From an uncultured Gemmatimonadales bacterium (GTDB lineage: Bacteria; Gemmatimonadota; Gemmatimonadetes; Longimicrobiales; RSA9), in contig OY970192.1 of assembly GCA_963708135.1 (NCBI GenBank), positions 2,656,001-2,720,000 on the forward strand: a stretch of DNA of 64,000 bases, written 5' to 3'. Positions 20,014 to 52,691 of the stretch are shown in pieces. Numbering within the stretch: the first letter of the stretch is position 1; the number at the start of each line of letters is the position of its first letter. The translations under genes were made by a program, and so were the position numbers. Below the pieces are notes generated by a model, which had not been told where the DNA came from, ran no database searches, and was given only the letters and a program-made list of their open reading frames with translations.

Positions 20014-20066
20014 GGGCCCAATGGTGCAATGCCGGATGGGGCGGAGCCATGGCTGGACGAGACGAT

Positions 20067-20566: not shown

Positions 20567-20570
20567 CGTG

Positions 20571-20728
20571 AACTCCCCACGCGCCCCGGGGCGCGTGGGG
20601 AGTTGACCGCGCTATTCGTTGGCAACTCCCCAAGGACCGGAGGCCCACGGGCACGATTGGGGACTTTACCGCGCTATTCGCAGGCAAGTCCCCAAGCGTC
20701 GATTCCAGGGCGGACGCGTGGGGACTTT
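20571..20728. repeat. Mini-array of 37-bp palindromic repeats with ~61-62 bp period (REP/CRISPR-like)
   Basis: TGGGGAGTTGACCGCGCTATTCGTTGGCAACTCCCCA (20596-20632) and TGGGGACTTTACCGCGCTATTCGCAGGCAAGTCCCCA (20658-20694), with half copies at 20571 and 20719. Confidence 0.7.
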
Positions 20729-24475: not shown

Positions 24476-24964
24476 TCAGTTGCAGGCGATGATGTCGTCC
24501 GTGGTGGCGGGGGCCGCCACGCCCGAGGGGGCGTTGCCGATGAAGATGCCGCACTGATGGCCGGGATAGCCCGCGTGGTCCGCCGTCGCGGCCCAGCCAC
24601 CATGAGCGGAGTAGGTGATGCTGAGCGTGACGCTCGGGCTCGGCTGGAAGTTGGCGACCGCCGGATCGGAGGCGTAGATGCCGTTGGAGGCGTAGTAGAT
24701 CTCCTGCTGGATGGAGAGCACGCGCAGGTCGTTCTGGAGCGTGGCCAGCATGGCGCGCTCGCGGACCTTCGTGAAGCTGCCGGCGACGATGGAGGCGAGG
24801 ATACCGATGATGACGACGACGAGAAGCAGCTCGATGAGCGTGAACCCGGCGCGGCACGGCGGCTCGTGATCGCGCGCGGCGGCGGGATGGCGGGCCGCCC
24901 CCGCCCGGGGGTGAGCGAAGGAGGCGGAGCGGCGGGCAGCCAGCTCAAAGGGGCGCGGGATCAT
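24476..24964 (-). CDS. Second major-pilin-like protein (PilA paralog)
   Basis: RAG|FTLIELLLVVVIIGILASI; QEIYY, F.PS..VT and CG.F.G....AAPAT.....C shared with PilA; ATGA overlap with upstream gene. Confidence 0.82.
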   Translation of the reverse strand: MIPRPFELAARRSASFAHPRAGAARHPAAARDHEPPCRAGFTLIELLLVVVIIGILASIVAGSFTKVRERAMLATLQNDLRVLSIQQEIYYASNGIYASDPAVANFQPSPSVTLSITYSAHGGWAATADHAGYPGHQCGIFIGNAPSGVAAPATTDDIIACN

Positions 24965-26703
24965 GAAGCGCTCCTGGCCGTGGCCGCGGCGGTCGGCACA
25001 CGCTGGAAGATGACGTACATGCGGAAGAGGGCGATGAGGTGGTAGTGCGCGCTGAACTCCGCGGCGAAGCGCGGGTCGCGGAGGAAGTACTGGAGGTAGT
25101 CGAAGTGGGCCATCGCCCGCGATGGGCCGACCCGGTCGACGATGAGGAGCGTCGGGCGGGCGCGCAGGAAATCCTCGACGTAGGCGTCCGCGAGCCAGTG
25201 CTCCGCGGGGCTCGTGTGCGCCGGGTCATGATAGGGGAAAGGGTCCGGCTGCCCGGTGACCTCGGGATACAAGCCCGCCAGGGGCCAGAGGGAGTTGAAG
25301 CGGGTGGCCCAGCCGATGCCGGTCAGGTTCACGAGCGGGAACCCGGCCTGGAGCTGCGTCGAGAGGACCATGATCGGCCCCTTCCCGGCATCGCGCTCGA
25401 CGAGTTCGAGCATGGCGGGGAGGTAGTAGGGGTAGCCGGCGTAGTAGCCGACCGGAGCCGGGTGACGGGCGCGCTGCCCGGCCGAGCCGAGCATGACGGC
25501 GGCAATGCCGAGGAACGCGAGCGAGCGCGCGGCAGCGACGTGCGTGGCGATCCGGGGCCGCTCGCCCAGACGGCGCAGGGCGTTGACGAGCACCACGACG
25601 AGGAGCAGCAGCGCGGCGGAGAGCACGGGCAGCCAGTGGTAGTCCCAACCCTTGCGCTCCCAGAGCAGCGCGGCCAGGAACCCGAGCATGACGAGCAGGA
25701 GCAGACGCCGCAGGTGGCGCAGCTCGGGCCGGCCCGGCACGAGGACGGCGGCCAGGGCCGCGGCGAGAACGAGGGCGCCCTTTGAATTCAGCAGCAGCCA
25801 ACTGTAAGGCTCGGGAACGAACCCGGCGTACGTGGCCCAGGCGAACTTCGCGATGCCCAGGTAGGCGGGCGTGAGGACGAGCACGCCGACGAGGTAGAGT
25901 CCGATCGCGGCCGCTGCCGCGAGGCACTCGGGGCGGCGTACGGCGCGCCGCCAGCCGCTCGTCGCGAGCAGATACAGCTCCACGGGCAGCAGGACCAGCA
26001 GGAAATACGGCTTGAGGGCCACCGCGAGGCCGGCAGCGATGCCGATGCCGACGGCCGCGCGCGGGGAGATGTCGCGCCGCTCGGCGCGCAGGGCGGCGAG
26101 AACCAGGTAAGGCAGGAAGAGGGCGAACATCAGGTGCTCGCGCTGCCCGAACTCGCGCCCGGCGAAGGGGAAGAGCAGAAAGGCCGCGAATGCGACGAGG
26201 AGGCGGCGGCCGGCGTCGCCGAGGGAGAGGCGGCGCAGCAGCAGTGCTGTGGCCAGCAACGCGCTGGCCGCGACAAGTCCCACGAAGACGGGAAACAGGA
26301 CCATGTCCGAGAGGCCGAGCGCGCGGGCGGCCCCCTCCACGGCGAGCGCGAAGCCGACGATCAACGGGGGGTTGACCTCGATGACGTCGCGGTACAGCAC
26401 GGCGCCGCCGAGGACCCGGTGGGCGACGTAGAGCAGCCAGGCATGGTCGTGGTTGATCGGGACCGCGAAGAGGGCGACGTAGGCGAACAGGCAGACGGCG
26501 GCGGTAACGACCAGCCAGAAGGCGCGGGCCGCGCTCAGCCGGCGGGCGAGCTCGAGCGGCCCGGCGGCCGACGCGGAATCCCGGTGGCCCGCCCGGGGAG
26601 CTCCCGGGACCGGCCGGATCGACCGCAACGGGCGTTCGACGGCAGCGCGGGGGGCGGGCGGGGCCACACGGCCCCGCAGCACCTGAGAGACTGGCTCCGT
26701 CAC
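24961..26703 (-). CDS. Polytopic membrane protein, GT-C-like putative glycosyltransferase, immediately downstream of pilA
   Basis: About 11-12 hydrophobic segments; first loop INHD...LYRDVIEVNPP; FGQREH, ALKPY; periplasmic C-terminal domain. Confidence 0.62.
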   Translation of the reverse strand: MTEPVSQVLRGRVAPPAPRAAVERPLRSIRPVPGAPRAGHRDSASAAGPLELARRLSAARAFWLVVTAAVCLFAYVALFAVPINHDHAWLLYVAHRVLGGAVLYRDVIEVNPPLIVGFALAVEGAARALGLSDMVLFPVFVGLVAASALLATALLLRRLSLGDAGRRLLVAFAAFLLFPFAGREFGQREHLMFALFLPYLVLAALRAERRDISPRAAVGIGIAAGLAVALKPYFLLVLLPVELYLLATSGWRRAVRRPECLAAAAAIGLYLVGVLVLTPAYLGIAKFAWATYAGFVPEPYSWLLLNSKGALVLAAALAAVLVPGRPELRHLRRLLLLVMLGFLAALLWERKGWDYHWLPVLSAALLLLVVVLVNALRRLGERPRIATHVAAARSLAFLGIAAVMLGSAGQRARHPAPVGYYAGYPYYLPAMLELVERDAGKGPIMVLSTQLQAGFPLVNLTGIGWATRFNSLWPLAGLYPEVTGQPDPFPYHDPAHTSPAEHWLADAYVEDFLRARPTLLIVDRVGPSRAMAHFDYLQYFLRDPRFAAEFSAHYHLIALFRMYVIFQRVPTAAATARSAS

Positions 26704-26833: not shown

Positions 26834-27238
26834 TTACTCGCCCTTGCAGGTGACGACACCGGCGATCGTGGCCGGAGCAGCGTCTCCGGAGACCTCGCCG
26901 CCGTAGAACACGCCGCAGCTCTGCGTGCTCGCATCCAGCGCCGCGTGCACGGCCGTGAAGGCGTACCCGGTGGCGTCGGCCTTGCCCGCGACGGTCACGC
27001 CCGAGGAGGGCGAGAAGTCGAGGCTGGCCTGGCTGGTCGTGTAGGAGTAGGCGTTGTTCGAGTTGTAGTAGATCTCCTCCTCGGACATGAGGTTCTTCAG
27101 GTCCGACTTCATGGCCGAGAAGTACGCCTTCTCGCGCGTCTTGCTGAACTTGGGGATCGCGATCGCGGCCAGGATGCCGATGATCACGACCACGATCAGC
27201 AGCTCGATGAGCGTGAAGCCCTGCCGTACCTTGAGCAT
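26834..27238 (-). CDS. pilA: Major type IVa pilin
   Basis: MLKVRQG|FTLIELLIVVVIIGILAAIAIPKF; strong RBS AAGGAG; own terminator; C-terminal Cys pair. Confidence 0.9.
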   Translation of the reverse strand: MLKVRQGFTLIELLIVVVIIGILAAIAIPKFSKTREKAYFSAMKSDLKNLMSEEEIYYNSNNAYSYTTSQASLDFSPSSGVTVAGKADATGYAFTAVHAALDASTQSCGVFYGGEVSGDAAPATIAGVVTCKGE

Positions 27239-27312: not shown

Positions 27313-27327
27313 GCAAGAGGCGAACCG
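27313..27327 (-). promoter_or_regulatory. Putative sigma54 (-24/-12) promoter of pilA
   Basis: Minus strand CGGTTCGCCTCTTGC (GG-N10-GC with TTGC), 75 nt upstream of the ATG; PilR-type activators are in the locus. Confidence 0.6.
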
Positions 27328-27428: not shown

Positions 27429-27459
27429 TTGCATTCTGCAATACCGGCGCAGTTTGCAA
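27429..27459. promoter_or_regulatory. Pair of TTGCA-N3-TGCAA-like palindromes (candidate enhancer sites)
   Basis: TTGCATTCTGCAA (27429-27441) and GCGCAGTTTGCAA (27447-27459), ~100-130 bp upstream of the sigma54 motif; the motif recurs at 52777-52811. Confidence 0.55.
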
Positions 27460-27465
27460 CGGCGC

Positions 27466-29328
27466 TCACGGCCACCGGATCTCCGCCTCCGCCCGGCGGA
27501 TGCGGTCGGCGCTGGCGGAGTCCCGGGGTGAGCGGGCGCGGGCGCTGTCGAGGGCGGCGCGGGCGGCGGCGCCGTCGCGGAGCGAGGTGTAGGCGCGGCC
27601 GAGCATGAACCAGCGCTTCCAGCCATCGCCATCGGGGAGTGCGAGGGCGCGCCCGAGCGTGGCGGCCTCCTCGGCGTGGCGGCCCAGATCGCGCAGCGCT
27701 TCCGCGCGCAGGTCGAGGAGGCCGGGCGTGGGGCCGCCCAAACGCTCAGACTGATCGAACCGGGCCAGCGCCTGCTCGAATCTGCCCGTCTTCAGCAAGG
27801 CCAGGCCGCGGACGAGGGCGGTGCCCGGGTTGCCCGGCTGGACGGAGTCGGCGCGCTGAAGGAGCGCCATGGCCCGCCCGTACCGCGCCCTCCCGACCTC
27901 GAACATGCCGAACTCGGTCAGGAACTCGCCGTCGTCGGGATAGAGCATGAAGGCGAGATCCCAGTGCCGCGTGGCGGCGACGCTGTCGCCGGCCGCGGCG
28001 GCCCGCGAGGCGGCCGACCACTGGGCGCGGTAGGACTCGGGGTGATCGCGGAGCAGGCCGGCGAAGAGCGCCTTCGTGCTGGCCCAGTCGGGGTTTCGCA
28101 CGATGCTCCTCGCCGCGCAGAGGGTCAGGACGAGGAGGAGGAGGGCCCGGAGCGGTCGTGTCCGGGGGGCGGGGGCGGCGGCGAGTGCCTCCCAGGCGAA
28201 CGCCGCCACGGCGGCAACAGCCACGGAAGGGAGGAAGAGCGTCCGCTCGGCGAGGATGACGCCGATGGGGAAGAACAGGTTCGAGACGGGGAGCACGGCG
28301 ACGAGGAACCATGCGGCCGGCAGGCCGAGCCGGGGCTGACGCGGCGTGAGCGCGGCGAGCGCAACCGTCGCGATCAACAGGAATCCACCCAGGAGCACCA
28401 TGGGCGAGAGGGCGGTCACGGGCAGGATCACGGCGGGGGAGTAGTCGGCCGAGAGGTCGAGCGGGAAGAAGAGGAGCCGCGCGTACTCGGGCCAGGCCCG
28501 CAGCGCCGTCAGCACGCGGTGCGGTCCGCGCAGGAACGGGAACCACGGGCCGGCATCGGCGCCGGCGACGGCGCCGAGGACGTGGACGCGCAGGAGCAGG
28601 TACGCCGCGGCGACGGCGCCGAGCGCGACGAAAGCCGGGGCGAGCCGGCGGGCGGCGTGTTCCAGCTCCCTGCGGGTGAAGGTGATCCGGCCCTGCGCGA
28701 GGTCGAGTACGAGGAGGAGGGCCGGCAACACGATGGCGCCCTCCTTGGCCAGGAGTGCGAGCGCGTAGAGGGCGGCGACGGCCGCGAGCCGGCCGGGCGG
28801 GACGCGCAGGCCGGCGGGCCGGCCGAGCCAGAGGACGCAGGCCCCGAGCACGCCGGCGGCAGCGATGAGCTCGGCCTGGCCCACGACGTTCGCGACGACC
28901 TCGGTGTGGAGCGGGTGGACGGCGAACAGGACGGCGCCGAAGAGCGCGGCGTCCGGGCCGGCCAGGCGGCGGAGGAGTAGCAGGACCAGCACGGCGACGG
29001 CGGCGGCGAGCAGCACGCTAACGAGATGGAACACCCACGGCGCCCCGCCGCCGAGCACCCACTGGAGCGCGAAGCCGAAGATGGTCAGGGGGCGGTAGAG
29101 GCCGAGCTGCCCGCCGCCCTTCATGAACCAGTACGGCGTGAGCCAGAGGGTGGCCTGGTGGTGCAGGGTATGGACGCGGGGGTCGCCGGCGATGATGTAG
29201 ACATCGTCGTACGCGAAACCGTTGGCGAGGGAGTTGGCGTAGGTCGCCAGGGTCGCGGCGAGGACGGCCACCAGCGACACAGCGAGGCGCGATGGCCACG
29301 TACGGAAGTCAGCGCGCAAGCTTCGCAT
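27466..29328 (-). CDS. TMTC/DUF1736-like GT-C membrane protein with C-terminal TPR-like repeats (paralog 1)
   Basis: NGFAYDD, YRPLT, FAVHPLHTEVVANVVGQAEL, LLAKE, LSADYS, PVSNL..ILAERTLFLPS, RNPDW, then helical repeats. Confidence 0.82.
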   Translation of the reverse strand: MRSLRADFRTWPSRLAVSLVAVLAATLATYANSLANGFAYDDVYIIAGDPRVHTLHHQATLWLTPYWFMKGGGQLGLYRPLTIFGFALQWVLGGGAPWVFHLVSVLLAAAVAVLVLLLLRRLAGPDAALFGAVLFAVHPLHTEVVANVVGQAELIAAAGVLGACVLWLGRPAGLRVPPGRLAAVAALYALALLAKEGAIVLPALLLVLDLAQGRITFTRRELEHAARRLAPAFVALGAVAAAYLLLRVHVLGAVAGADAGPWFPFLRGPHRVLTALRAWPEYARLLFFPLDLSADYSPAVILPVTALSPMVLLGGFLLIATVALAALTPRQPRLGLPAAWFLVAVLPVSNLFFPIGVILAERTLFLPSVAVAAVAAFAWEALAAAPAPRTRPLRALLLLVLTLCAARSIVRNPDWASTKALFAGLLRDHPESYRAQWSAASRAAAAGDSVAATRHWDLAFMLYPDDGEFLTEFGMFEVGRARYGRAMALLQRADSVQPGNPGTALVRGLALLKTGRFEQALARFDQSERLGGPTPGLLDLRAEALRDLGRHAEEAATLGRALALPDGDGWKRWFMLGRAYTSLRDGAAARAALDSARARSPRDSASADRIRRAEAEIRWP

Positions 29329-30964
29329 CGATGGCGCGGGCCATCTTCGTCATGAGGTCGTCGCCGGGGGCGAGACGCAGCCCGGCCCGGAGCGCCGCGC
29401 GCGCGGTCGTGGTATCGCCGCGGTCGAGGGCGGTGGCGGCGAGGACGCGCTGGATCTCGGGATGGTCGGGCCAGCGCCGGGCCGCGCGGCCCGCGAGCGC
29501 CTGGGCACGATCCAGATGGCCGGCCGCGATGGAGGTTTCGGCGGCCTCGATCGGCGCCCAGGGGAGGTAAGGCCAGAGCGGCAGTGCCCGGGCGTACTCG
29601 CGCTCGGCCAGGCCCAGATCGCCGTCGTTGCGTGCGAAGCGGGCGAGGAAGAGGTGCGCGCGAAAGTCGTCGGGCCGGTCCCGCAGCTCGGCGATGAAGA
29701 TGCTCTCGGTGGAGTGCCAGTCGCGAATGCGCAGCTCGGTCCTCGCCACGAGCAGGAGGGCGACGACGGCAAAGGCGAATCGCGGGACCGCGCGCGAGAC
29801 CTGGCTGCGCCGGAGCACGCGGTCGAGGCCGGCGGCGGCCACCGCCAGCGCGAACAGCGGCAGATACAGCGTCCGCTCCGCGAGCACGATGCCCGTGGGG
29901 AACAGGAGATTGGAGACGGGCAGCATCAGGAGCGGCACCCAGAGGAGTGCGAGCGCGGTGCGCCCCCGGCCTCGGACGAGCGCGTAGATGCCGCCGGCGA
30001 GAACGGCCGCGAGCAGCAGCAGGCCCAGCACGGCGCTCGCGCTCCATCCGTGGGGCGGCATGAAGATGCGGGGACCGTAGTCGGCGAGCAGCGTGCGCGG
30101 GAAGAAGAAGAGGCGCAGCACGCTCGGCCAGACGCCGAGCGCGACGAGCAGGCGGGGTCCGGTCGCGGTCACGACATCGAAGAGCGGGTTCACCTGCCTG
30201 GCGGTGAGGTGCCCGAGCACGGCGAGGCGCAGGGCAAGGAAGGCGATCACCGCGGCGCCCAGGGCGGCATACGCGCCAGCGCGCGCCTTCAGGTAAGCCC
30301 CCAGACTCGCACGGCCCGGGCGCCAGCGTCCGAGCGCGCCGTCGAGAAGCAGCAGCGCCGCGGGCAGCATGACGGCGCTTTCCTTCGAGAGTAGCGCGAG
30401 CGCGAAGAGGAGCGTCACGGCGGCCGTGCGCCGGACGGACGGGCCCGACCCCGGCGCCGCGGTCCAGGCCAGGCAGGCCGCCAGGAAGAAGACCGAAGCC
30501 ATGATCTCGGCCCTGCCCACGACGTTCGCCACGGCCTCGACATGGACCGGATGGACGGCGAAGAGGATCGCGCCGACCAGCGCGGGGCGGGTGGAGAAGA
30601 AACGTCGCAGGAGCAGGAAGACGAGCACGGATGCCGCCACATGCCATAGCAGGCTCGTGAAGTGGAACCAAGCCGGCGAGCCACCGGACAGCGCCCAGTC
30701 CACGGCGAAGCCGAGCGTCGTGAGCGGGCGGTAGAGCGCCATGTCGGCCCCGTTCGCGCCCCAGTAGGGTAGCGTCCAGATCCGCGGGAACGACGCGAGG
30801 GCGTGAACGCGCGGGTCGTTCACGATCACCGCCACGTCGTCGTAGGCGAAAGCGTTACGAAGCGAGAGCGCGTAGGCGGCTCCCGCCACGAGCGCCACGA
30901 GCGCGGCGGCGGCGGTGGGGCGCGACGTGGAACCGACGCCCGTGTCGGGCCCGTCAGGAGTCAT
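29309..30964 (-). CDS. TMTC/DUF1736-like GT-C membrane protein with TPR-like tail (paralog 2)
   Basis: NAFAYDD, YRPLT, FAVHPVHVEAVANVVGRAEI, LLSKES, LLADY, PVSNL..VLAERTLYLP, RIRDW. Confidence 0.82.
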   Translation of the reverse strand: MTPDGPDTGVGSTSRPTAAAALVALVAGAAYALSLRNAFAYDDVAVIVNDPRVHALASFPRIWTLPYWGANGADMALYRPLTTLGFAVDWALSGGSPAWFHFTSLLWHVAASVLVFLLLRRFFSTRPALVGAILFAVHPVHVEAVANVVGRAEIMASVFFLAACLAWTAAPGSGPSVRRTAAVTLLFALALLSKESAVMLPAALLLLDGALGRWRPGRASLGAYLKARAGAYAALGAAVIAFLALRLAVLGHLTARQVNPLFDVVTATGPRLLVALGVWPSVLRLFFFPRTLLADYGPRIFMPPHGWSASAVLGLLLLAAVLAGGIYALVRGRGRTALALLWVPLLMLPVSNLLFPTGIVLAERTLYLPLFALAVAAAGLDRVLRRSQVSRAVPRFAFAVVALLLVARTELRIRDWHSTESIFIAELRDRPDDFRAHLFLARFARNDGDLGLAEREYARALPLWPYLPWAPIEAAETSIAAGHLDRAQALAGRAARRWPDHPEIQRVLAATALDRGDTTTARAALRAGLRLAPGDDLMTKMARAIDAKLAR

Positions 30965-32654
30965 GGGACCTCCCGGGCGGCGGAGCGCCGACGGAGCGGC
31001 CGATGCGGGCGAGCACCGTGTCCGCGGGGCTCACGCGCAGCCCGGCGAGCACGGCGCCGCGCGCGAGCGCGGGGCGTCCGAGGTCGAGCGCGCTGCCGGC
31101 GAGGACCCGATAAAGGGAGATGCTGCGCGGCCAGTGCTCCGTGCCCCAGCGGGCGAGCGCCAGGGCGTAGGTGTCGTGCCGGCGCTTGTGGCTCAGGTCC
31201 GCGGCCTCCCAGATGAGGTGCTCGCGGTACGGCCAGAGCGCGATGGCGCGGGCGTATTCGGCGGCCGAGCGGGCATCGGCATGGTCGACGCGGGCCATGC
31301 GGGCGAGGTGCCAGTGGCCGCGGAAGGCGTCGGGACGGTCGCGGACGAGGGCCTCGAAGATCCGGTTTGTGCCCTCCCACTCCGGGACCCGCAGGGCGGA
31401 GCGGACGCCGAGCGCGAGCAGCACGAGGATGCCGGCGGCGAGCGCGGGGCGGCGCAGGCGCAGTGGCGCGCGGACGGCGGCCTCCGCCAGCGCGGCGGCG
31501 CCGAGGGAGAGCGCGAAGAAGGGCAGATAGAGCGTGCGCTCGGCCACGAGGACGCCCACGGGGATGATGAGGTTCGAGACCGGCAGGATGGCGGTCGGGA
31601 ACCAGAGGAGCGCGAGGACCGCGCGGCGGCGGCGGGCGACGAGCGCGGCGGCGCCGATTCCCAGCAGGGCGGTGAGGAGGACGAGTCCGAGCAGCGCGGC
31701 GGGCGTCCAACCGTGGAGCGGCATGGTGATGCGCGGCGCGTAGTCGACGAGCAGCGTGCGCGGGAAGAGGGCGAGCCGGAGCCAGATCGGCCAGGCCTGG
31801 AGCGCGGTGATCATGCGGAGCCCGCGGCCGTGCAGCACCTCGAGCGTGGGATCCAGGATGCCGGGCCCGACGCGGCCGAGCACGGCGAGGCGCGCGGCGA
31901 GATAGAGGCCGAAGGTCGCCGCGAGCGCGGCCAACGCCCGGCCGCGTACGCGCAGGTAGGCGCGGAGCCGGGCGGGGCGCAGGTCCCAGCGGCCGATAGC
32001 GAAATCGAGGAGCAAGAGGAGCGCCGGCAGCACGGCGGCGCTCTCCTTGGAGAGGAGCCCGAGGAGGTAGAGGGAGGCGGCGGCGGCCACGTCGCCTGGC
32101 GTGGCGTGGGCGTCGGGGAGGCGCGTCCAGACGAGGCAGGCGCCCAGGACGGCGGCAGCGGCCATGAGCTCGGCGCGGCCGACGACGTTGGCCACGGCCT
32201 CGACGTGGACGGGGTGCACGGCGAAGACGAGCGCGCCGAAGAGCGCGGGGCCGGCGGCGAAGAGGCGGAGGAGCAACCGGTAGGCGAGCCAGCAGACGGC
32301 GAGGTGCCAGACCAGGTTCAGGAAGTGGAACCAGGGCGGACTGCCGCCGGAGACGGCCCAGTCGAGGGCGAAGGAGACGTTGGTCAGCGGGCGCCAGATT
32401 CCGAGCCCGGTGGCGTGGGGCCCCCAGTACGGCTGGGTGAGCAGCTCGGGGATGCGGCCCAGGGAGTGGACGCGCGGGTCCCTCTCGATGATCGGCACGT
32501 CGTCGTAGGCGAAGACGTTCCGGAGCGCGAGGGCGTACTGCGCGACGACCGCGAGCGCGAGCAGGAGCGCGGCGCGCGCGTCCGGGCCGAGCGCGCGGAG
32601 CCGCGGCCGTGCGGGCGGCAGGTGCTTCGGCGCGGGGAGCGGGGCCTCAGTCAC
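30954..32654 (-). CDS. TMTC/DUF1736-like GT-C membrane protein with TPR-like tail (paralog 3)
   Basis: NVFAYDD, WRPLT, FAVHPVHVEAVANVVGRAEL, LLSKES, LLVDY, PVSNL..VAERTLYLP, RVPEW; GTG start 32654 inferred. Confidence 0.82.
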   Translation of the reverse strand: MTEAPLPAPKHLPPARPRLRALGPDARAALLLALAVVAQYALALRNVFAYDDVPIIERDPRVHSLGRIPELLTQPYWGPHATGLGIWRPLTNVSFALDWAVSGGSPPWFHFLNLVWHLAVCWLAYRLLLRLFAAGPALFGALVFAVHPVHVEAVANVVGRAELMAAAAVLGACLVWTRLPDAHATPGDVAAAASLYLLGLLSKESAAVLPALLLLLDFAIGRWDLRPARLRAYLRVRGRALAALAATFGLYLAARLAVLGRVGPGILDPTLEVLHGRGLRMITALQAWPIWLRLALFPRTLLVDYAPRITMPLHGWTPAALLGLVLLTALLGIGAAALVARRRRAVLALLWFPTAILPVSNLIIPVGVLVAERTLYLPFFALSLGAAALAEAAVRAPLRLRRPALAAGILVLLALGVRSALRVPEWEGTNRIFEALVRDRPDAFRGHWHLARMARVDHADARSAAEYARAIALWPYREHLIWEAADLSHKRRHDTYALALARWGTEHWPRSISLYRVLAGSALDLGRPALARGAVLAGLRVSPADTVLARIGRSVGAPPPGRSHDS

Positions 32655-34326
32655 GGATGTGGTAGAGGAACATGGTGTGGCCGAGCACGGTGTCCGGCTG
32701 GACCCGGCGGAAGCGGGCGAACGGATCACCGGGCAGATAGACGCCCTGGAGATTGGTGGCGGAGATGGCCACCCAGCGCGGGTCGGGGCCGTGGCCCGGG
32801 AGGGGCAGCAGGCGGAAAAAGCTCGGCAGGGGCAGGTAGTCGATGCCGTAGCCGGCGGGCTGCGCCGAGCCGAAATAGCTCAGGTACACGCGCGGGATCT
32901 GGTGGGCGCGCATGAAGTCGCGGAGCTCGAGCAGGCCCTGCCCCCAGTCGAGGCTGGAGTCGATGAGCACCTCATCGCCACGGTCGCGGGAGGGCGCGTA
33001 GGCGCTGGTGAAGGCGATGTAGTCCGGGTAGAAGGACAGCGAGGAGGCGGCGTACCAGAGAGACACGAGGACGATTCCCGCCCTCAGCTCCCGCCCCGCG
33101 GAGCGCCAGAGGCGGAGCACGCCGGCGGCGATGACGATGCACGCGAGCGGCAGGAGCGGCAGCCCGTGCCGGAACCCGATCTCGAGGTGCGCGCGCAGCA
33201 GGAAGAAGAGGTAGACGGCGGCGCCGATGAGTGGTGCGCGGAGCGGCGAGGCGAGCGCCTTCCTCACGGCGACGCGGCCGGCCGCGCGCGCGGCGCCGAG
33301 GCGGCGGGCGAAGCCGAGCAGCGCGAGGGCGAGGAGCACGTGCAGCGCCACGGGCGTCTTCAACAGGAAGGCCACGGGGAAGAAGTACCAGAACCCGCCC
33401 ACGTGGCGGTGCCCGAGGAGGAAGGCCGGGATGCGCCCGTGGCCGAGGCGGGCGTGCCGGATGTTGAAGTTGAGCCCCCAGCGGAACTGCGCGAGGTGGA
33501 CGTCGCCGCGGAAGACGAGGACCAGGACCAGGTAGCTCGTGGCGAGCGCGACCGGCACGCCGACGGCGACGCGAAGCAGCCAGCGGCGGTCGAGCCCGCG
33601 CGAGAAGCCCTCGGCCAGGATGAGCAGGAGCGCGACGGGCGCGAGCGCGATGGCGCTGTACTTGACCCCCACGGCCAGGGTGACGGCGATGGCGGCCGCG
33701 ACGACGCGGCCGAGCGTGGGGCGGCGGGCGGCGCCGTCCAGCGCCCAGACGCCGAGCAGGAACGCGAGGGCGACGGGCACGTCGTTGTAGGAGATGCCGC
33801 CGTGGGCCAGCACATCCGGGAGGAAGGCGACGAGGCCGGCGGCGAGCAGCCCCTCCGCGGGGCCGAAGCGGCGGCGGGTGAAGGCGTAGGCGGCCACAAC
33901 GAGCAGGAGCGCGATGGCCGCGGCCACGAGGCGCGCCACGAAGGCGAGGCGCTCGGGGTCGTTGCCGACGCCCCAGTAGAACTGCTGGGCGTAGATGTAG
34001 CGGAAGTCGTAGCGCCAGCCGCCCGCCGGCTCCGCCGGGATGCGTGGATGGGTGAGGTAGACCGGCAGGCCATAGACGTACTGCATGAGCGGCGGATGGT
34101 CGAGCACCAGGTCGAACCGGCCGGTGGCGTAGCCGCGCGCGCCGGCGGAGGGGAGCAGGATCTCGTCGAAGGTGGTGGAGGTGTGCCGCATCGCGCCCAC
34201 GATGGCGACGCCGCACACGACGAGGATCAGCGCCAGCGCGGCCGCGTGGAGGCGCGGGCCGAGGCGAGCGGGAAGCCGCGGCCCGGCGGCGGCCGGGGCG
34301 TCGAGGACGACCCGCTCCTCCGTCAC
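32647..34326 (-). CDS. ArnT/PMT_2-like GT-C glycosyltransferase
   Basis: TSTTFDE acidic loop, DHPPL, PDVLAHGG..ND, VKYSA, WYFFPVAFLLKTP, DSSLDWGQ; GTG start 34326. Confidence 0.78.
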   Translation of the reverse strand: MTEERVVLDAPAAAGPRLPARLGPRLHAAALALILVVCGVAIVGAMRHTSTTFDEILLPSAGARGYATGRFDLVLDHPPLMQYVYGLPVYLTHPRIPAEPAGGWRYDFRYIYAQQFYWGVGNDPERLAFVARLVAAAIALLLVVAAYAFTRRRFGPAEGLLAAGLVAFLPDVLAHGGISYNDVPVALAFLLGVWALDGAARRPTLGRVVAAAIAVTLAVGVKYSAIALAPVALLLILAEGFSRGLDRRWLLRVAVGVPVALATSYLVLVLVFRGDVHLAQFRWGLNFNIRHARLGHGRIPAFLLGHRHVGGFWYFFPVAFLLKTPVALHVLLALALLGFARRLGAARAAGRVAVRKALASPLRAPLIGAAVYLFFLLRAHLEIGFRHGLPLLPLACIVIAAGVLRLWRSAGRELRAGIVLVSLWYAASSLSFYPDYIAFTSAYAPSRDRGDEVLIDSSLDWGQGLLELRDFMRAHQIPRVYLSYFGSAQPAGYGIDYLPLPSFFRLLPLPGHGPDPRWVAISATNLQGVYLPGDPFARFRRVQPDTVLGHTMFLYHIRD

Positions 34327-35147
34327 CGGCGCTCCGCCTCCCTTCCCGGCCGCGGCGCGGCGGTCTCCCGCGCGCCCGCGGGGGCCGGGGAGCGGGCGCC
34401 GGGCCGGAGCGTCGTCCAGTAGATGGTGGCCACGCCGAGGAGGGCGCGCGCGTAGTCGCGGGAGCGGAGCTTGGAGCCGGCCACGTCGCGCCAGCGGACG
34501 AGCGGCATCTCGTAGACGACGCCCTCCGCGGGAGGCGCTCCGGCCGCGCGGCGCGCCACGATCATGCGCGCGAGGATCTCGACATCGAAGAGCCAGCGGG
34601 TGCGGAACGGCGCGGAAAAGACGTCGAGCATGGCCGGTGTGGCGCGGAACAGCTTGGCGCCGCACTGGGTGTCGTAGACGCGCATGCCGAGGATGAGGGA
34701 AATGGCGGTGGCGGAGAGGCGGCCCAGGTAGTGGCGCATGCGGCTTCGCTCGATCTGGCGGCCGAGCAGCTGGACGCGCGAGCCCATGGCCAGCTCGATG
34801 TGCGGGTGCAGGTCGAGCACGCGGCGGAAGTCCGCGAGCGCGTCGAGCGGGGTGGCGAGGTCCGCGTCCCAGAAGCCGACGTACCGGGGAAGCGCGCCCG
34901 CGGCGGTCAGGACGCCCTGCCGGACCGCCTCGGCCTTGCCGACGTTCTCGCGCAGCGCGAGCACGCTGAACCGGTCGGGCAGGCGCGCGGCGATCTCGCG
35001 CAGCAGGGTAAGCGTGGCGTCCCGGCTGCCATCGTCCACGAGCAGGAACGAGACGTCCGGCTGCGCGCGGGCGAACGCCTCGAGGGTGGACGCATCCAGG
35101 CGCTCGGCCTCGTTGTAGCACGGGACGACGATGGTGACCTCAGGCAT
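34323..35147 (-). CDS. GT2, polyprenyl/dolichyl-phosphate glycosyltransferase-like
   Basis: IVVPCYNE, VDDGSRD, NVGKAEAVRQG, WDADLATP, DTQCGAKLF, WLFDVEIL. Confidence 0.85.
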   Translation of the reverse strand: MPEVTIVVPCYNEAERLDASTLEAFARAQPDVSFLLVDDGSRDATLTLLREIAARLPDRFSVLALRENVGKAEAVRQGVLTAAGALPRYVGFWDADLATPLDALADFRRVLDLHPHIELAMGSRVQLLGRQIERSRMRHYLGRLSATAISLILGMRVYDTQCGAKLFRATPAMLDVFSAPFRTRWLFDVEILARMIVARRAAGAPPAEGVVYEMPLVRWRDVAGSKLRSRDYARALLGVATIYWTTLRPGARSPAPAGARETAAPRPGREAERR

Positions 35148-35997
35148 GCTCCGCTCCGGGCCCGCCGACGGCGGCGGGGTCGTGGAGGTCGGGCGCGATG
35201 GTGGAGGGCCGCTCGCGCGGGCGAATCTCCCCGGCCTCGCGGCGCAGCAGCGCGACGAGGCTGACGCCCGCACGATACCCGCAGACGCGGTGTCCGTTCA
35301 GGGTGTCGAGCAGCACGCCGGCCTCGGCGCCGAATACGCGCTCCAGCGCGGCGTTGAGCGGCGCGGGCGGCAGCGAGAGGTCGGTCCCGGCGCGGCCGCT
35401 GGCGTGGCCGCGCAGCCGGCCGAGGGCGCGCACCGTCCGCACGACGGGGTACAGGCGGGTGTTGAAGTAGGAGAGGAGCAGCGGCCGTACGGGCAGCCCG
35501 TCCCAGACGGCGGCCAGACGCGCGGCATCGTAGCGGCGGTAGTGGCCGAAGCTCACGTCGTGCTGGCTCCACAGCCGCTCATCCGCGGGAACGGTGATGA
35601 GCACGTGCGCGCCCGGGCGCGTGCGCGAGAGCACGTCGGAGACGAGCGCGAAATCGTCGGGGACGTGCTCGATCACGTCCATGAAGAGGAGCATCGAGGC
35701 CTCCTCGACGTCCTCCTCGATGTCGGCGGGGGCGAAGCCGTGGACGAAGCGGACGCCGGGAAAGCGCTCGCGGGCGAAGGCGATGGCGTCGTCCGAGGTG
35801 TCGATCCCCACGCAGCGATAGCCGTCCGCGAGGGCGGCGATGTTGGCGCCCGTTCCGCAGCCGACATCCACGACGAGGGCCCCCTCATCCGGCGGCACGG
35901 CGGCACGGACGAGGCGCGCCATGATGCGGCGGCGGCCGGCGAACCACCAGTGGCGCGCCTCCAGCTCGGCGTGCAGGCGGAACAGGTCGGGCCTCAT
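35140..35997 (-). CDS. Class I SAM-dependent methyltransferase
   Basis: HWWFAGRR, VDVGCGTG, DVIEHVPDD, TVPA..LWSQHD...GHYRRY. Confidence 0.85.
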   Translation of the reverse strand: MRPDLFRLHAELEARHWWFAGRRRIMARLVRAAVPPDEGALVVDVGCGTGANIAALADGYRCVGIDTSDDAIAFARERFPGVRFVHGFAPADIEEDVEEASMLLFMDVIEHVPDDFALVSDVLSRTRPGAHVLITVPADERLWSQHDVSFGHYRRYDAARLAAVWDGLPVRPLLLSYFNTRLYPVVRTVRALGRLRGHASGRAGTDLSLPPAPLNAALERVFGAEAGVLLDTLNGHRVCGYRAGVSLVALLRREAGEIRPRERPSTIAPDLHDPAAVGGPGAEHA

Positions 35998-37829
35998 GGG
36001 CCTGCTTCCGGGCCGAACGTGCCCACGGCATACTGGTCGTGGATGGCGGTGACCTCGAGCTTCCACGCATGCGCCGCCGCCGTTCCCGCGCCCAGGTGCA
36101 GCAGCAGGAAGGCGCGCGGCATCCGCGCGCGCGGCAGCGGCGCGGGGTTCACCGTAGAGAACACGAGCCAGCGGGTGTCCACCGCTCCCGCGTAGCGCAT
36201 GACGCGCTCGAGCGACGCGGTGGGCAGCACGCGCCAGTCGCGGTCGGCCCAGACGGCCACGGCCGGGCTCCAGCTCATGACCGGCTCGTCTGGCGGCACC
36301 ATGCCGCGCAGCGCGACACCCACCTCGTGGTTGACCTTCGCCACGACCTGCCCCACCGACCCGACGGTGAGCGAGAGATAGAGCCGGCGCGCGTCCGTGC
36401 CGAGGAGGATGAGGAGCGTCACGGCGACGACGAGCCGCCGCTGGAAGCCGCGCTCGACCTCGAGCCCGCGCGAGCGCCGCCGGAGCTCCACGGCGCCGAG
36501 CCGGAGCCCGCGCGCCGCGTACCAGGCGAGGGCCGGCGCGAGGATGATCTGGGTGCGCGGATCGATGGCCACGAGCAAGCCGATGGCCACGGCCGTCACG
36601 GCGAGCGGGGCGAAGGCGACGAGCTCGCGGCGCCGGCCGTGTCCGGGCGCGAGCACGCCGGCCAGGATGAAGGGCCAGAGGAACCACGGCGCGACGACGC
36701 CCATGGCGCGGATGAAGTAGAGCGCGCGCTGGAGGAGGACGGGCGTGCTGGACGCGGCGGCGCGTGGCGCGGCGGACGCCAGGACCCCGGGCGCGGCGGG
36801 CAGGGGTCTGTCGGCGCGGACAACCGCGCCGGCGCTTCGCTCGCCCGACGAACGAGACGCCTCCCTCGGCGGCACGCCCCAGTAGGCGTTGGCCATGCGC
36901 GTGTCGGAGGGGTCGAGCCGGTACAGCTGCCGTGCGTAGGGGTGGTCCTCGCCCTCCCAGAGCATCTGCTCGATCGTCCGCTCGCCGGTGGTGGCGCCCT
37001 CCGTGGCGGTGCGGGCCACGGCGTGGATGCCCACCGCCACGCCGCGCCCGGTGAGGGCCCAGCGGCCGAGCGCGTCGTGAAGGTAGAGGAAGTAGGGCGC
37101 CGTGACGAGGCCGAAGACCGCGCCCAGGAGCACGAGCCGGGCGGCGCGGCCGAGCACGGCGCGGCGGCGGCGCGCCGCGAGGCCGAGGCTCGCCGCGGCC
37201 ACGAGGGCGGCGGCGAGGATCGCCTCCGGCCGGTCGAGGAAGGCGAGCCCGAAGGCGCCGCCCGCCAGCGCCCACCGTCCCCAGCCGTCGCCCGCGGCGA
37301 GGACGAGCGCGATCCCGGTGAGAAGGAACAGGTAGCCGAGCGGCCCGGCGCCGACCCAGAGGTCCCAGCCGATCCAGTACGGGGCGACGAAGGGCGCGAG
37401 CGAGGGGAGCACGGCCACCATGCCGCAGGAGATGAGCGCCGTGCGGCGGCCGGCCAGGCGGCGGAAGATGCTCCAGCAGGGGAGCACCAGCAGCCCCGAG
37501 GCGACGGCGGCGACGATCCGGCCGCCCCACACCAGGCTGCCGACCAGGCGGGCGACCCCGCCGGCGGCGATCGGGAACAGCGGGGAGAGCGCCGTGTGGC
37601 GCAGCCCCGAGAGCGTGTAGCCGTGCCCGGCCCAGAGGCTGCGCGCCAGCAGCAGGTACCACCCCTCGTCGAAGGCGATGTAGTCCCCGCGCCCGAGGAA
37701 GAGGAGCAGGCGGAGCAGGATGGCGAGCGCGGCGATGGCGAGCGCCGGATGGCGGGCCAGAGCGCGCCTCCACCCGGGAGGCGTAGCGGCGGCGCTCCCG
37801 TGCGGCAGGGTCACGGGATGCCCGATCAC
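35994..37829 (-). CDS. GT-C-like (PMT_2/ArnT-type) membrane glycosyltransferase
   Basis: YIAFDEGWYLLLARSL first loop, PLFP, LDRPE, many TM segments; GTG start inferred. Confidence 0.68.
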   Translation of the reverse strand: MIGHPVTLPHGSAAATPPGWRRALARHPALAIAALAILLRLLLFLGRGDYIAFDEGWYLLLARSLWAGHGYTLSGLRHTALSPLFPIAAGGVARLVGSLVWGGRIVAAVASGLLVLPCWSIFRRLAGRRTALISCGMVAVLPSLAPFVAPYWIGWDLWVGAGPLGYLFLLTGIALVLAAGDGWGRWALAGGAFGLAFLDRPEAILAAALVAAASLGLAARRRRAVLGRAARLVLLGAVFGLVTAPYFLYLHDALGRWALTGRGVAVGIHAVARTATEGATTGERTIEQMLWEGEDHPYARQLYRLDPSDTRMANAYWGVPPREASRSSGERSAGAVVRADRPLPAAPGVLASAAPRAAASSTPVLLQRALYFIRAMGVVAPWFLWPFILAGVLAPGHGRRRELVAFAPLAVTAVAIGLLVAIDPRTQIILAPALAWYAARGLRLGAVELRRRSRGLEVERGFQRRLVVAVTLLILLGTDARRLYLSLTVGSVGQVVAKVNHEVGVALRGMVPPDEPVMSWSPAVAVWADRDWRVLPTASLERVMRYAGAVDTRWLVFSTVNPAPLPRARMPRAFLLLHLGAGTAAAHAWKLEVTAIHDQYAVGTFGPEAGP

Positions 37830-47580: not shown

Positions 47581-48761
47581 CAGATCCTGCCGAAGCCCGC
47601 AGAGCGCAGCACGCTCAGGAAGAAGGAGGCGAAGACGACGTCGGCGCCGAGGACCATGAGGGTGAGCGCCAGGAGGGCGGGCCGGACGGCGAAGATGTAG
47701 CCGGCACCCGAAGTCACCCAGCTCGAGAGGATGTAGATGTTGATGGCGAGCCCGGCGCCGAAGAGGAGGCCACCGAGCGTGACGCCGCGCTCGAGCGTGT
47801 AGTGCAGGTGGAAGCGGTGGATCCACAGGTCGTCCACGCCGGGCCCGTGCACGAGCGCGTAGGTCTTCGCGTAGAGCCCGAGCAGGATGAGCTGGAAGCC
47901 GAACATCGCCAGCGCGCCGCCCACGAACATGAAGTGGTAGTCGAAGCGCAGCGGGCCCAGGCGTAGCGGCCCAGGCAGCAGCGCCAGCTCGGCGAGCATC
48001 CCGATGCCGAGGAGCAGCATGCCGGGGATCAGGAAGAGGCGAGTCGGGCTGAGCAGCAGGAGCTGCCGCGCCACGCGCCAGCCATCGCCCATGGCGCGGC
48101 GGGGGGTCCCCGCCGGCCGCGGGCCGAAGCGGACCGGCACCTCGACCACCTCGAGGCGCGCGCGCGCCGCCTCGAGCAGCATCTCGCTGGCGAACTCCAT
48201 GCCCGTGGCACCCAGGTCGAGGCGGGGGAGCACGTCGCGGCGCACGGCGCGCATGCCGCAGCGGACATCGGAGACCTTGAAGCGGAGGAATCGGCGCGAG
48301 AGCCAGTTCTGCACCGGCTCCAGCAGGTGCCGGTGGTGGGCGCCCATCGCGCGCGGCAGCATGAGCCCGTCGCGGCGGGTGCCGAGCACCAGCTCGTAGC
48401 CGGCGCGCAGCGGCTCGATGAAGCGAGGAAGCGCGGAGAGGTCGTAGGTGCCATCGCCATCGGCCAGCACGAGGTACTGCCCGCCCGCGGCCTCGAGCCC
48501 GCGCAGGCAGGCGGCGCCGTAGCCGCGGATCGGCTGCCGGACGACCATGGCGCCCGCGGCGGCCGCCGCCTCGGCGGAGCCGTCCGTCGAGCCGTTGTCG
48601 CAGACGACGACCTCGCCCGCGTAACCCGCGTCGGCCATGACCGTCACCGCGTCGCGAACGCACCCGGCGATCGTCGCCGCCTCGTTGCGGCACGGGATGA
48701 CGACGGAGACCTCGACGGCTCCCGTGGGGACGGGAGGCGTGATGCGCGCGTCCTGGCTCAC
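47580..48761 (-). CDS. GT2 DPM1/Ppm1-like synthase with C-terminal TM helices
   Basis: VIPCRNEA, DNGSTDGS, RGYGAA, DGDGTYD, GMEFASEM, DGWR, four C-terminal TMs. Confidence 0.85.
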   Translation of the reverse strand: MSQDARITPPVPTGAVEVSVVIPCRNEAATIAGCVRDAVTVMADAGYAGEVVVCDNGSTDGSAEAAAAAGAMVVRQPIRGYGAACLRGLEAAGGQYLVLADGDGTYDLSALPRFIEPLRAGYELVLGTRRDGLMLPRAMGAHHRHLLEPVQNWLSRRFLRFKVSDVRCGMRAVRRDVLPRLDLGATGMEFASEMLLEAARARLEVVEVPVRFGPRPAGTPRRAMGDGWRVARQLLLLSPTRLFLIPGMLLLGIGMLAELALLPGPLRLGPLRFDYHFMFVGGALAMFGFQLILLGLYAKTYALVHGPGVDDLWIHRFHLHYTLERGVTLGGLLFGAGLAINIYILSSWVTSGAGYIFAVRPALLALTLMVLGADVVFASFFLSVLRSAGFGRI

Positions 48762-49647
48762 GGGTGGAAGCCGGGCGGGGCGGGTGCCGGGCGGGCGCGC
48801 CGATCGCGGGCGTCGGCGGCGGGACCATCGCCATCATTGAGCTCGACCGAACGCGACGCGGAGCGAGCCTCGAGGGTCGTGCGCGGTGCCTTCGGTCGGG
48901 TCTCGAGCGCGCGCTCCTCGCCCGCGGCGCGGAACGGCCGTGCGCGCGGGGCGAGCAGATTGTGCCGCAGGATGTGCCAGAAGGCGGCCACGCCATCCTT
49001 CCAGCTGATCTTCTTGCCCTCCGCGTAGGTGCGGCCGCTGTAGCTGATGGGCAACTCGAAGATGCGGGCGCGCGCCTGGGCGAGGCGGGCGGTCAGCTCA
49101 GGCTCGATGCCGAACCGATTCGAGACCAGCGGGAGCGAGGCGAGCAGATCGGCGCGCACCATCTTGTAGCACGTCTCCATGTCCGTCAGGTTCAGGTCCG
49201 TGAGCATGTTGGAGACGAGCGTGAGGAGGCCGTTGCCCACGCTGTGCCAGAAGTAGAGCACGCGGTGCGGTCCACCCAGGAAGCGGCTGCCGAAGACGGC
49301 GTCGGCGCGCCCGTCCAGGATGGGCTCCATCAGGCGGGGCAGGTCGTCCGGGTCATACTCGAGGTCAGCATCCTGGATAACGATGATGTCCCCCGTGGCG
49401 CGCGCGATCCCGGTGCGCACGGCGGCGCCCTTGCCGCGGTTCTCCGGGTGCACCTCGAGTACGTCGATGACGTCGCGGTCGAGCAGCGACTGGAGCACCT
49501 GGCGGGTGCCATCGCGGGAGGCATCATCGACGCAAACGATCTCGATATCGAGCGGGACGGCACGAACGCGTCCCACCGCGCGCGCCACCGTCTGCTCCTC
49601 GTTGTAGACCGGCATGATGACGCTCAGCCGGACATCGTTCCAACGGA

Positions 49648-49651
<4 letters not shown>
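48758..49651 (-). CDS. GT2 DPM1-like polyprenyl-phosphate glycosyltransferase
   Basis: MPVYNE, NRGKGAA, QDADLEYDP, TDMETCYK, FGIEPELT, GRTYAEGKKISWKDG; ATGA overlap with the pilR stop. Confidence 0.88.
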
Positions 49652-51023
<1,372 letters not shown>

Positions 51024-51024
<1 letters not shown>

Positions 51025-52691
51025 CAGCGCGGCACCCCCGCCGCCGCCGGCACGCCGGCCGGCTCCTCTCGCACTCCCGCCCTTCCCTGCCCCGGGAGGT
51101 AGACCGTGAACTGCGCTCCGCGCTCGCGCCCCGACTCGACGAAGATCGCGCCGCCGTGCGCGACCACGGCCCGGTGCACCAGCGCGAGACCCAGCCCGGT
51201 GCCACCCTTCCGCGTGGTGAAGAAGGGGTCGAAGATGCGCGTCGAATCCTCGATGGCCACGCCCGGTCCCGAGTCGGAGACCACCACCCGCACGGGCTCG
51301 GCGAGCACGACGCCGGCGGGAAGCTCCGACGGCGCCGGCGCGTCGAGCTCGACCCGCACCACCCCACCCTGCCCCGCCTGCTGGGCGCCGTTCAGTACGA
51401 GGTTGAAGATCGCCCGGTGCAGCAGGTCCTCGTCCCCCTCCACCCGCAGCGCGCCCGCGCCCGCCGCGTACTCGAGGCGCACCGAGTCCGAGTCCGGGTG
51501 CCGCTCCACCAGCTCGATCGCCTGCCGCGCCAGCGCCGCCAGGTCCACCCCGCCGCGGCGGCGCAGCTCCAGCCGGCTGAAATCCATGAACTCGGTCAGC
51601 AGCCGCGACAGCCGGTCCGACTCCGTCAGCACCAGCCCGCGCAGCGTGCCCCTGTCGCGCTCCTGCAGCCGGTTGCCGCCAAGCTGCTCGACGGCGCTCC
51701 GGATCGAGGCCAGCGGGTTCCTGATCTCGTGGGCCAGCGACGCGCCCAGCTCCGCCACCGCCTGCAGCCGCTCCGCGCGCCGCGCCAGCTCCTCCAGCCG
51801 CTTGTCCTCCGTGATGTCCTGGAACACCGCGGTCACCCACGGCACCCCCTCCCGCTCCAGGATCGTCGTGCGCGCCCCCACCACCCGCGGCCCCGCCTCC
51901 GCCGTCACCGGCATCCGGATCTCGTACTGGTGGATCGGCGTGCGCCGCGTCGCCGTGTAGGACACGGCCCCACCCAGCCCCGGCGCGGCACGGTCCAGCT
52001 CGTCCACCACCCGCACCCCGCGCCACGTCCGCTCCCGGATGCCCAGCAGCCGCTCCCCCGCCTCGTTCAGGTACACCAGCCGCCCATCCGCGTCCACCGT
52101 GACCAGCCCCGTGTCGATCGCCTGCAGGATGTCCGACGTGTCCAGCCGCAGCTGCTCCAGCTCCGACTCCACCGCCCCCAGCGCCGTGCCCGTCCGCCGC
52201 AGCCGGTCCCCGAGCGCCGCCGTCACCAGCGCCATCGCAGCGAACAGCGCCAGCTGGAGCAGCACGCTCCCCGTCGCCGGGTCCGGCTGCAGCCACGCGA
52301 TGTCCGCCACGTACAGGATCCCCGCCAGCCCGCCGATCAGCATCCCGCCCGGCAGCGGCAGCAGCAGCGCACCCGCCGCGATCACGAGGATGTAGAGCGG
52401 TGGAAACTCGCTCCGCGCCCCGCCCGTGATGTGCACCACGGCCGTGACCACGAGCGTGTCGAAGATCACCTGGAGGTAGAGGAAGTTCCGGCCCGGAAGG
52501 CGGCCCCGCAGCTGCGTGTGCCACAGACTGCCCAGCGTCACCACGATCGACAGCAGCAGCACCAGCGTGGCCACCAGCGTCGTCAGCGGCGTCGTACGCG
52601 GCCACACCAGCAGCGCACCACCGAAGATCCCGGCGGCGAGCGTGAGGCGGCCGAGATACAGCCACCTGAGCGTTCGCAGCGAATGCATCAT
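51024..52691 (-). CDS. pilS: Sensor histidine kinase PilS-like (six TM + PAS + HisKA + HATPase)
   Basis: N-terminal TMs with YLQVIFD..TGG..S.F..LY PilS signature, PAS, AHEIRNPLASI, DSGPG, FDPFFTT, GTGLGL. Confidence 0.82.

Follow-up and report, generated by a model that had tools for sequence, protein, structure and literature searches.

Tandem TMTC-like glycosyltransferase genes between pilR and pilA in Gemmatimonadota: a probable type IV pilin O-glycosylation system

Three tandem genes for predicted membrane glycosyltransferases, named here T1, T2 and T3, lie directly upstream of the major type IV pilin gene pilA in an uncultured Gemmatimonadales bacterium (assembly GCA_963708135.1). The stretch analysed, hereafter the window, comprises 64,000 nucleotides of contig OY970192.1 (positions 2,656,001 to 2,720,000), and coordinates below are window positions unless a locus is named. 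An earlier note, made from the sequence alone, had described three overlapping paralogs, and three intact minus-strand open reading frames (ORFs) indeed span 27466-32654 exactly: T1 (30954..32654, 566 aa, GTG start at 32654, database protein P0013), T2 (29309..30964, 551 aa) and T3 (27466..29328, 620 aa). Their junctions overlap by 11 and 20 nt, and 227 nt separate the end of T3 from the pilA ATG (27238), in agreement with the position upstream of pilA that had been claimed. Pairwise identities of the membrane domains are 54, 47 and 46%, the first being that of T1 and T2. Every motif of the series listed in the note was recovered in all three proteins, with one correction: the spacer of the PVSNL-AERTL motif is 7 residues long, and not 2. 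The TPR tails (tetratricopeptide repeats) are of unequal length, as the note had observed, with 136 aa in T1, 131 aa in T2 and 201 aa in T3 beyond the membrane domain. According to a membrane-domain profile search, T1-T3 are the sole copies in the 5.4-Mb genome, all of them at pilA.

Hydropathy gives 10-12 membrane segments for the paralogs. AlphaFold2 modelled T2 and T3 with good confidence (predicted local distance difference test, pLDDT, of 93.2 and 92.1 respectively), and both models contain 11 membrane-type helices, followed by 3 (T2) or 5 (T3) TPR hairpins. A match to the GT-C fold, the lack of which would by the note have spoken against its reading, was found for both models: their membrane part resembles STT3, AglB, Pmt4, Pmt1-2, ALG12 and ArnT (Z ~18-21, root-mean-square deviation 4-5 Å, 320-355 residues). 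AftD is also among the fold matches, and ArnT, AftD and ALG12 score about as high as the protein-modifying enzymes. No solved relative of TMTC or TfpW, two GT-C proteins discussed below, was among the matches of the sequence and fold searches, which does not mean that none exists. The acidic motif of GT-C enzymes is present as a DD after helix 1 in T1 (residues 51-52), T2 (42-43) and T3 (41-42), in a loop predicted to be periplasmic. Among 225 related membrane domains, the first Asp of this DD is found in 224, and the RP, the KE and the Arg of the ER motif in all 225. A scan of the whole Pfam library yielded PMT_2 (33.3 bits, above cut-off) and TPR matches for T2 and nothing for T1, which had a weak PMT_2 match in a separate search. 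We conclude from the models of T2 and T3, and for T1 from its 54% identity to T2, that the three proteins are members of the GT-C superfamily.

The family is very large: searching with a profile in which the TPR tail was included gives 29,499 representatives (50% identity) at E≤1e-30. The named relatives are Gemmatimonadota, the nearest carrying the labels Longimicrobiales or Gemmatimonadales, and a plasmid collection that was searched gave no match. Among 79 loci chosen by similarity, 65 had enough flank to be evaluated, and a pilA-like gene was found at most 1.5 kb downstream of a family member in 51 of these. An even sample of 120 genomes of the phylum, 105 of them from the same class (Gemmatimonadetes), was then scored with at most 24 candidates per genome. 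Profile matches were obtained in 69 of the 120 genomes and in 57 of the 105 same-class genomes; the other 48 class genomes had no match, which is not proof of absence. The order to which the window belongs had a match in 3 of 14 sampled genomes. Of the 57 class genomes with a strong match, 51 have a pilin-motif gene at most 5 kb away, as counted in the fetched loci (some second copies fall outside the fetch). Synteny thus upholds the view that a pilin is the likely acceptor.

The genes sit in a slot whose surroundings are conserved, in the order pilS-pilR-[GT2, one to three TMTC-like genes, variable cargo]-pilA-(second pilin)-histidine kinase-regulator-minor pilins, the TMTC-like genes being inverted in some relatives. 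In the window its upstream border is formed by pilS-pilR (49648..52691, minus strand), which encode a 6TM_PilS histidine kinase and a sigma-54 response regulator. The slot was compared in 86 loci, each with a pilR and a pilA gene, that were left after removal of three duplicates; by design, this set is enriched for TMTC-positive loci. TMTC-like genes occur together with a GT2 gene in 62 loci, alone in 7, and are missing from 17, where the GT2 is found twice and neither gene 15 times. The GT2 is therefore present in 62 of 69 TMTC-bearing slots versus 2 of 17 TMTC-negative ones. A single TMTC-like gene is found in 27 of the 69 TMTC-bearing slots, and the smallest slot with these genes consists of the GT2 and one TMTC-like gene, in ~3 kb. 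The slot of the window, 22.4 kb long, is the largest of the 86. Most TMTC-negative slots (12 of 17) measure at most 1.1 kb; in two, a GT2 stands beside genes for other membrane proteins, and two encode a membrane protein that resembles spermidine synthase. On a PilR tree, the state of the slot switches 9 times, at least 5 of them on supported branches. A co-loss test for the GT2 and the TMTC-like genes was set aside: the independent pairs never contradict the association, and are too few for significance.

The conserved GT2 of the slot (48758..49651, minus strand) is the proposed maker of the sugar donor. Its orthologs share a median identity of 67.5% (n = 103). The best solved relative is the dolichol-phosphate mannose synthase 5mlz (E 9e-18), which we take to be of the Pyrococcus type, followed by ArnC and GtrB, and NCBIfam gave sub-threshold matches to AglJ and similar models. 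This suggests an enzyme of the polyprenyl-phosphate-sugar synthase type, a match that does not fix the sugar.

On the other side of T3, the product of pilA (26834..27238, minus strand) matches the N_methyl and PilA models. Its mature form of 127 aa, the proposed acceptor, has 23 Ser/Thr in residues 25-127, and T60, T61, S62 and S65 follow the long helix. A second PilA-like pilin (24476..24880, start approximate, minus strand) is a possible further acceptor. A sigma-54 type -24/-12 box, GG-N8-TTGC, is located at 27313..27326 on the minus strand, and candidate enhancer words, presumably PilR-binding, lie upstream of it at 27431..27459 on the same strand. When the window was scanned with a strict sigma-54 consensus, this box was missed and the counts were at chance level; the comparative test found it, as GG-N8-TTGC occurs upstream of pilA in 71 of the 86 loci (shuffles: mean 9.7, maximum 18), in most cases at a distance of 84-115 nt from the Phe1 codon. 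The commonest upstream word is the 8-mer TTGCAGAA, in 27 of 86 loci. A terminator-like hairpin follows pilA (26804-26776), and T1-T3 stand at the end of a block of genes that overlap one another from 39058 on. By comparison of these upstream regions, pilA probably has its own sigma-54 promoter.

An enzyme of this design has already been characterised. TfpW, a protein of 646 aa, is predicted to have 11 helices; its DDX motif is essential, its loop 4 carries a YX6PFX7P motif, and its TPR domain is periplasmic. Its gene is directly 3' of pilA, and the enzyme adds D-arabinofuranose to pilin Ser/Thr, chiefly Thr64 and Thr66, according to the study that describes it (10.1101/2020.04.19.049825). It is reported from Pseudomonas aeruginosa/paraeruginosa group IV strains (Pa5196, PA7), the gene standing beside pilA in a swappable slot (10.1101/2020.04.19.049825; PMC12369383). 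The earlier note knew of no established substrate for bacterial members; TfpW, with 11 helices, DDX and a TPR tail, has a pilin substrate, and therefore a bacterial enzyme of the same design already has a pilin acceptor. We consider it probable, judging from sequence, models and synteny, that T1-T3 are GT-C enzymes of the inner membrane, built like TMTC and TfpW, and that they attach O-linked sugar to the type IV pilin.

Such a system might work as follows. The slot GT2 would load a monosaccharide on undecaprenyl phosphate, as its family and its co-occurrence with the TMTC-like genes suggest, a hexose being likelier than arabinofuranose. The lipid-linked sugar would reach the periplasmic face, where the TPR tail may recruit the membrane-anchored PilA before assembly, as proposed by analogy with TfpW and with TMEM260 (GT117), whose TPR domain is described as sufficient for acceptor recruitment beside an 11-helix GT-C core (bioRxiv 2026.03.17.711096). 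The DD of loop 1, together with the RP, HP-x-H-x-E, KE, DY and ER residues, would then activate a Ser/Thr of the pilin and transfer the sugar to it. The likely purpose, by analogy with Pseudomonas, would be to mask the pilus from phages, as pilin glycans are reported to protect against them (10.1101/150227; PMC12369383).

As for the donor, a D-arabinofuranose pathway was considered and rejected: neither PF04030 (ALO, DprE1-type) nor PF04138 (GtrA) was found in the 97.65%-complete genome, DprE2 not being part of the search. Since these are missing and a linked GT2 is present instead, the sugar is probably not D-arabinofuranose. PF01050 is present elsewhere in the genome, which does not fix the sugar either.

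Several observations weigh against a pilin acceptor or the enzymes proposed for it. Six of the 57 class genomes have no pilin link (one of the six stops at a contig edge), several second family copies are unlinked to pilins, and two loci (L066 and L120) keep the slot with no pilA after it. In another class, no pilin motif was found in the 12-19 kb fetched around each of three TMTC-like triplets (L124, L126 and L127), and the large protein next to one of them (L124) has Fn3 matches. Near T1-T3 themselves lie genes for a Wzx-like flippase, GT4s and three further GT-C-like proteins, any of which could be acting on the pilin in their place. Because T1-T3 are upstream of pilA's own promoter, their transcription is probably that of the pilSR-glycosylation block, in contrast to tfpW. 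Homology to TfpW is suggested by architecture and one motif. An enrichment in Ser/Thr in the alpha-beta loop of pilins near TMTC-like genes also failed: the raw difference (2.96 versus 1.59 of 6 residues, 69 versus 17 loci, p 4e-5) weakened to p 0.056 once the anchor was set by alignment, the anchor itself proved inconsistent, and in the kin control, with only 5 supported independent pairs, the sign test was not significant, so that it is not used as evidence. Finally, pilin distance follows the proximal TMTC-like protein with PilR and PilS controlled (partial Mantel r 0.34, p 0.001, 36 loci), and does not follow the GT2; it also follows the histidine kinase on the other side of pilA (r 0.26, p 0.003, 36 loci), which means that adjacency accounts for part of the signal. 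We regard this signal as weak, because partial Mantel tests overstate.

The unlinked copies and the triplets of another class bear on a first alternative, a general periplasmic O-glycosylation in which many beta-strand-rich surface proteins are modified, as TMTCs do with cadherins, the pilin being one target or none. The motif register shared with TMTC (see below) also speaks for it, as do the triplets, which stand before a large protein of the Fn3 type and have no pilin motif in their vicinity; besides, with no other copy in the genome, any general role would fall to T1-T3. We nevertheless hold it unlikely. The pilin linkage is tight (51 of 57 genomes), and a slot that in 17 of 86 loci is empty or has other contents, together with the 48 of 105 class genomes without a match, argues against a housekeeping pathway. 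The substrate that the earlier note had put forward beside the pilins, a Thr-rich lipoprotein-like protein of 1165 aa (window 1-1712, running past the window edge; L200:218-3712), is a poor candidate: it is 25 kb away, with 15.5% Thr and no Pfam family, and with a single query it was not found in any of the 20 TMTC-positive genomes searched.

The cargo of the window slot bears on a second alternative. Between 32647 and 48761 on the minus strand lies a lineage-specific set of glycosylation genes, with further GT2s, GT4s, two methyltransferases, the Wzx-like flippase and two PMT_2 GT-C genes (32647-34326 and 35994-37829, minus strand); one GT4 (39139-40380) is on the plus strand, opposite to the rest. 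A sixth GT-C-like membrane protein of 580 aa is encoded between pilA and the second pilin (24961..26703, minus strand); its PMT_2 score of 24.4 bits is below cut-off, its Atlas neighbours carry PMT_2, and no homolog above 80 bits was found in the other fetched loci. With such contents, the pilR-pilA interval could be merely a hotspot for surface-glycan genes, and T1-T3 could decorate a lipid or polysaccharide, adding side branches in the manner of ArnT or GtrC. The fold agrees about as well with ArnT, AftD and ALG12 as with protein-modifying enzymes, and other cargo occupies the slot in some genomes. Against it, the minimal slot is reduced to the GT2 and one TMTC-like gene, no other fetched locus has a close homolog of the Wzx-like gene, and the characterised GT-C enzymes with TPRs (TfpW, TMTC and TMEM260) modify proteins in the reports cited here; decoration of a glycan or lipid is thus distinctly unlikely. 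Least probable of all is that the pilin receives a Wzx-flipped, methylated oligosaccharide en bloc, or that T1-T3 form one obligate hetero-oligomer with no division of sites, as would agree with STT3/AglB among the top fold matches, with the Wzx and GT4s of this largest slot and with the self-interaction of TfpW in a two-hybrid test (10.1101/2020.04.19.049825), since, of the window genes searched for, the GT2 is the only one of donor type that most relatives have, and many slots contain a single copy.

Assuming O-glycosylation of the pilin, the presence of three paralogs calls for comment, as the earlier note had proposed that they divide the labour. In a paralog tree built from 41 of 238 rows, T1 and T2 share a supported clade of short-tailed proteins (8 members), their pairing as sisters being unsettled. 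T3 belongs to another supported clade, also with 8 members, and each of the 7 that are complete has a long tail and is pilA-proximal. Five related loci have one of each type. At the position of TMTC motif M3, Arg predominates among T2-like proteins (114 of 120) and Gln among T3-like ones (116 of 120), hence the short-tailed Arg-type and the long-tailed Gln-type clades. Family-wide (n = 225) the position varies (R 110, Q 60, L 21, F 9), and in 20 of 55 multi-copy arrays the copies do not differ at it; a catalytic switch was therefore rejected, and the residue is a lineage marker only. The two kept subfamilies fit a specialisation of the paralogs. T3 and T1/T2 would represent old, separately kept subfamilies, T1 being an extra copy within the T2 clade, and they would probably serve different acceptor sites or different pilins (PilA or the second one), or share out priming and extending between them. 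Against specialisation, slots with a single copy are frequent (27 of 69), gene duplications arose several times, and the M3 position is variable.

Some further features of these loci are worth recording. In the cargo, a second GT2 with a methyltransferase (34323-35997) is common to only 4-5 fetched loci; this GT2 is presumably polyprenyl-phosphate-sugar-synthase-like, by its motifs, and the pair may supply a second or methylated sugar. A 272-aa ORF (45860-46678) adjoins the Wzx-like gene and has a faint sulfotransferase match (E 0.045). The two TMTC-negative slots with a spermidine-synthase domain (L090:7367-10408 and L096:8922-12014) are filled by a divergent 1000-aa membrane protein, a possible agent of a different pilin modification. 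In L080, L081 and L083 a slot-type GT2 is directly upstream of pilA, after a DUF5715-LysM gene, in a locus devoid of a TMTC-like gene. Orphan PilA-like genes lie directly 3' of DNA polymerase I, outside the main pilus locus, in L085 (checked with Pfam), L089, L091 and L094. The triplets mentioned above (L124:6048-18999, L126 and L127; family f10) have long TPR tails and stand after folB-folK-panC and before the gene for a very large protein; in L124 this Fn3-type protein is a candidate non-pilin, beta-sandwich substrate, nearer the cadherin case. In the window, a low-complexity, repeat-like G+C-rich stretch (20000-20700, from ORF translations) separates the regulator gene from the minor pilins, and at 56593-57335 a PIN-domain gene after a small ORF is likely a toxin-antitoxin pair.

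The animal TMTC proteins were the family named in the earlier note. In animals, TMTC paralogs are reported to serve different cadherin strands. TMTC1-4 (CAZy GT105) are cadherin O-mannosyltransferases with an 11-helix GT-C domain, luminal TPRs and seven motifs (M1 DD, M2 SHKSYRP, M3 RxD, M4 KE, M5 DW, M6 PxxP, M7 ERxxY), as given in PMC7801869. The bacterial paralogs share the 11 membrane helices followed by TPRs in the T2 and T3 models, and the DD, YRP, FAVHP-x-H, KE and ER motifs in the same register. This register could be fixed because the TMTC3 segment quoted in PMC7801869 stops nine residues before the Arg of M3, as in the paralogs. M7 is ERxxY in T1 and T2 and ERxxF in T3. They differ in that only (Y/W)RP is retained of M2, SHKS being absent, M3 is RxE (T1, T2) or QxE (T3), DW is DY, KE(T/Q)xxT is KE(S/G)A, M6 is not kept as such (second Pro only, or a wider spacing), and there are only 3-5 TPRs. 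The DUF1736 membership announced in the note could not be retained as a formal assignment: Pfam PF08409 stays below its cut-off (only match in the genome 16.7 bits, in T3, versus 27), and reaches E≤0.01 in 7 of 75 T3-like relatives (best 3.8e-4). The weak match falls over loop 4. In the Atlas, a eukaryotic DUF1736 cluster matches at 0.93, behind bacterial clusters at 0.97-0.98. Kinship with TMTC, on the other hand, is borne out by the motif register, the weak DUF1736 matches and this eukaryotic cluster. The name O-mannosyltransferase goes too far, as the missing SHKS is part of a predicted mannose-contact motif. Given the missed cut-off and the loss of part of the modelled mannose-contact motifs, we call the paralogs TMTC-like. 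That mannose is the transferred sugar is possible, though on balance doubtful. It is rather unlikely that a single family unites TfpW, the Gemmatimonadota enzymes and animal TMTCs and that the slot performs TMTC-type O-mannosylation with a GT2-made undecaprenyl-phosphate-mannose, the subfamilies mannosylating different Ser/Thr sites of the pilin; if true, it would offer a tractable bacterial model for site choice by TMTC paralogs and their TPR tails.

Compared to TMEM260, which has a Rossmann-like domain between the membrane part and the TPRs, the T2 and T3 models have no beta strands. TfpW is closer, with ~11 helices, DD(X) in the first periplasmic loop, a C-terminal TPR domain, a similar length (646 versus 551-620 aa) and a gene that adjoins pilA in a swappable slot. 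Of its YX6PFX7P motif, T3 keeps the Tyr, both prolines and the spacing, with Leu for Phe (Y282-x6-P289-L-x7-P298, within the weak DUF1736 match), whereas T1 and T2 keep the proline spacing only. The exact motif is found in 13 of 120 T3-like and 0 of 120 T2-like proteins, and the looser YX6PX8P in 65 and 49 of 120 respectively (shuffle means 2.7 and 1.3). In the published literature searched, most subscription journals being outside its coverage, no paper was found that links TMTC with TfpW or describes pilin glycosylation in Gemmatimonads. If T1-T3 do glycosylate the pilin, about half of the Gemmatimonadetes-class genomes sampled (57 of 105) would hold a cassette that glycosylates the pilin in the manner of TfpW but from another donor, repeatedly gained and lost in one slot, as a phage-receptor shield would be, and the lone characterised TfpW would be tied to a very large TMTC-like bacterial family. 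This would not be a new class of enzyme, because the TfpW design and its pilin substrate are published, and some homologs already bear the JGI label 'protein O-mannosyl-transferase' (9 of 120 T2 relatives among the matches listed). The tfpW gene is single, downstream of pilA and co-transcribed with it, whereas here one to three paralogs lie upstream, before the sigma-54 promoter of pilA. What sets the Gemmatimonadota system apart from TfpW would thus be the upstream position, the GT2 donor, and the one to three paralogs in two kept subfamilies.

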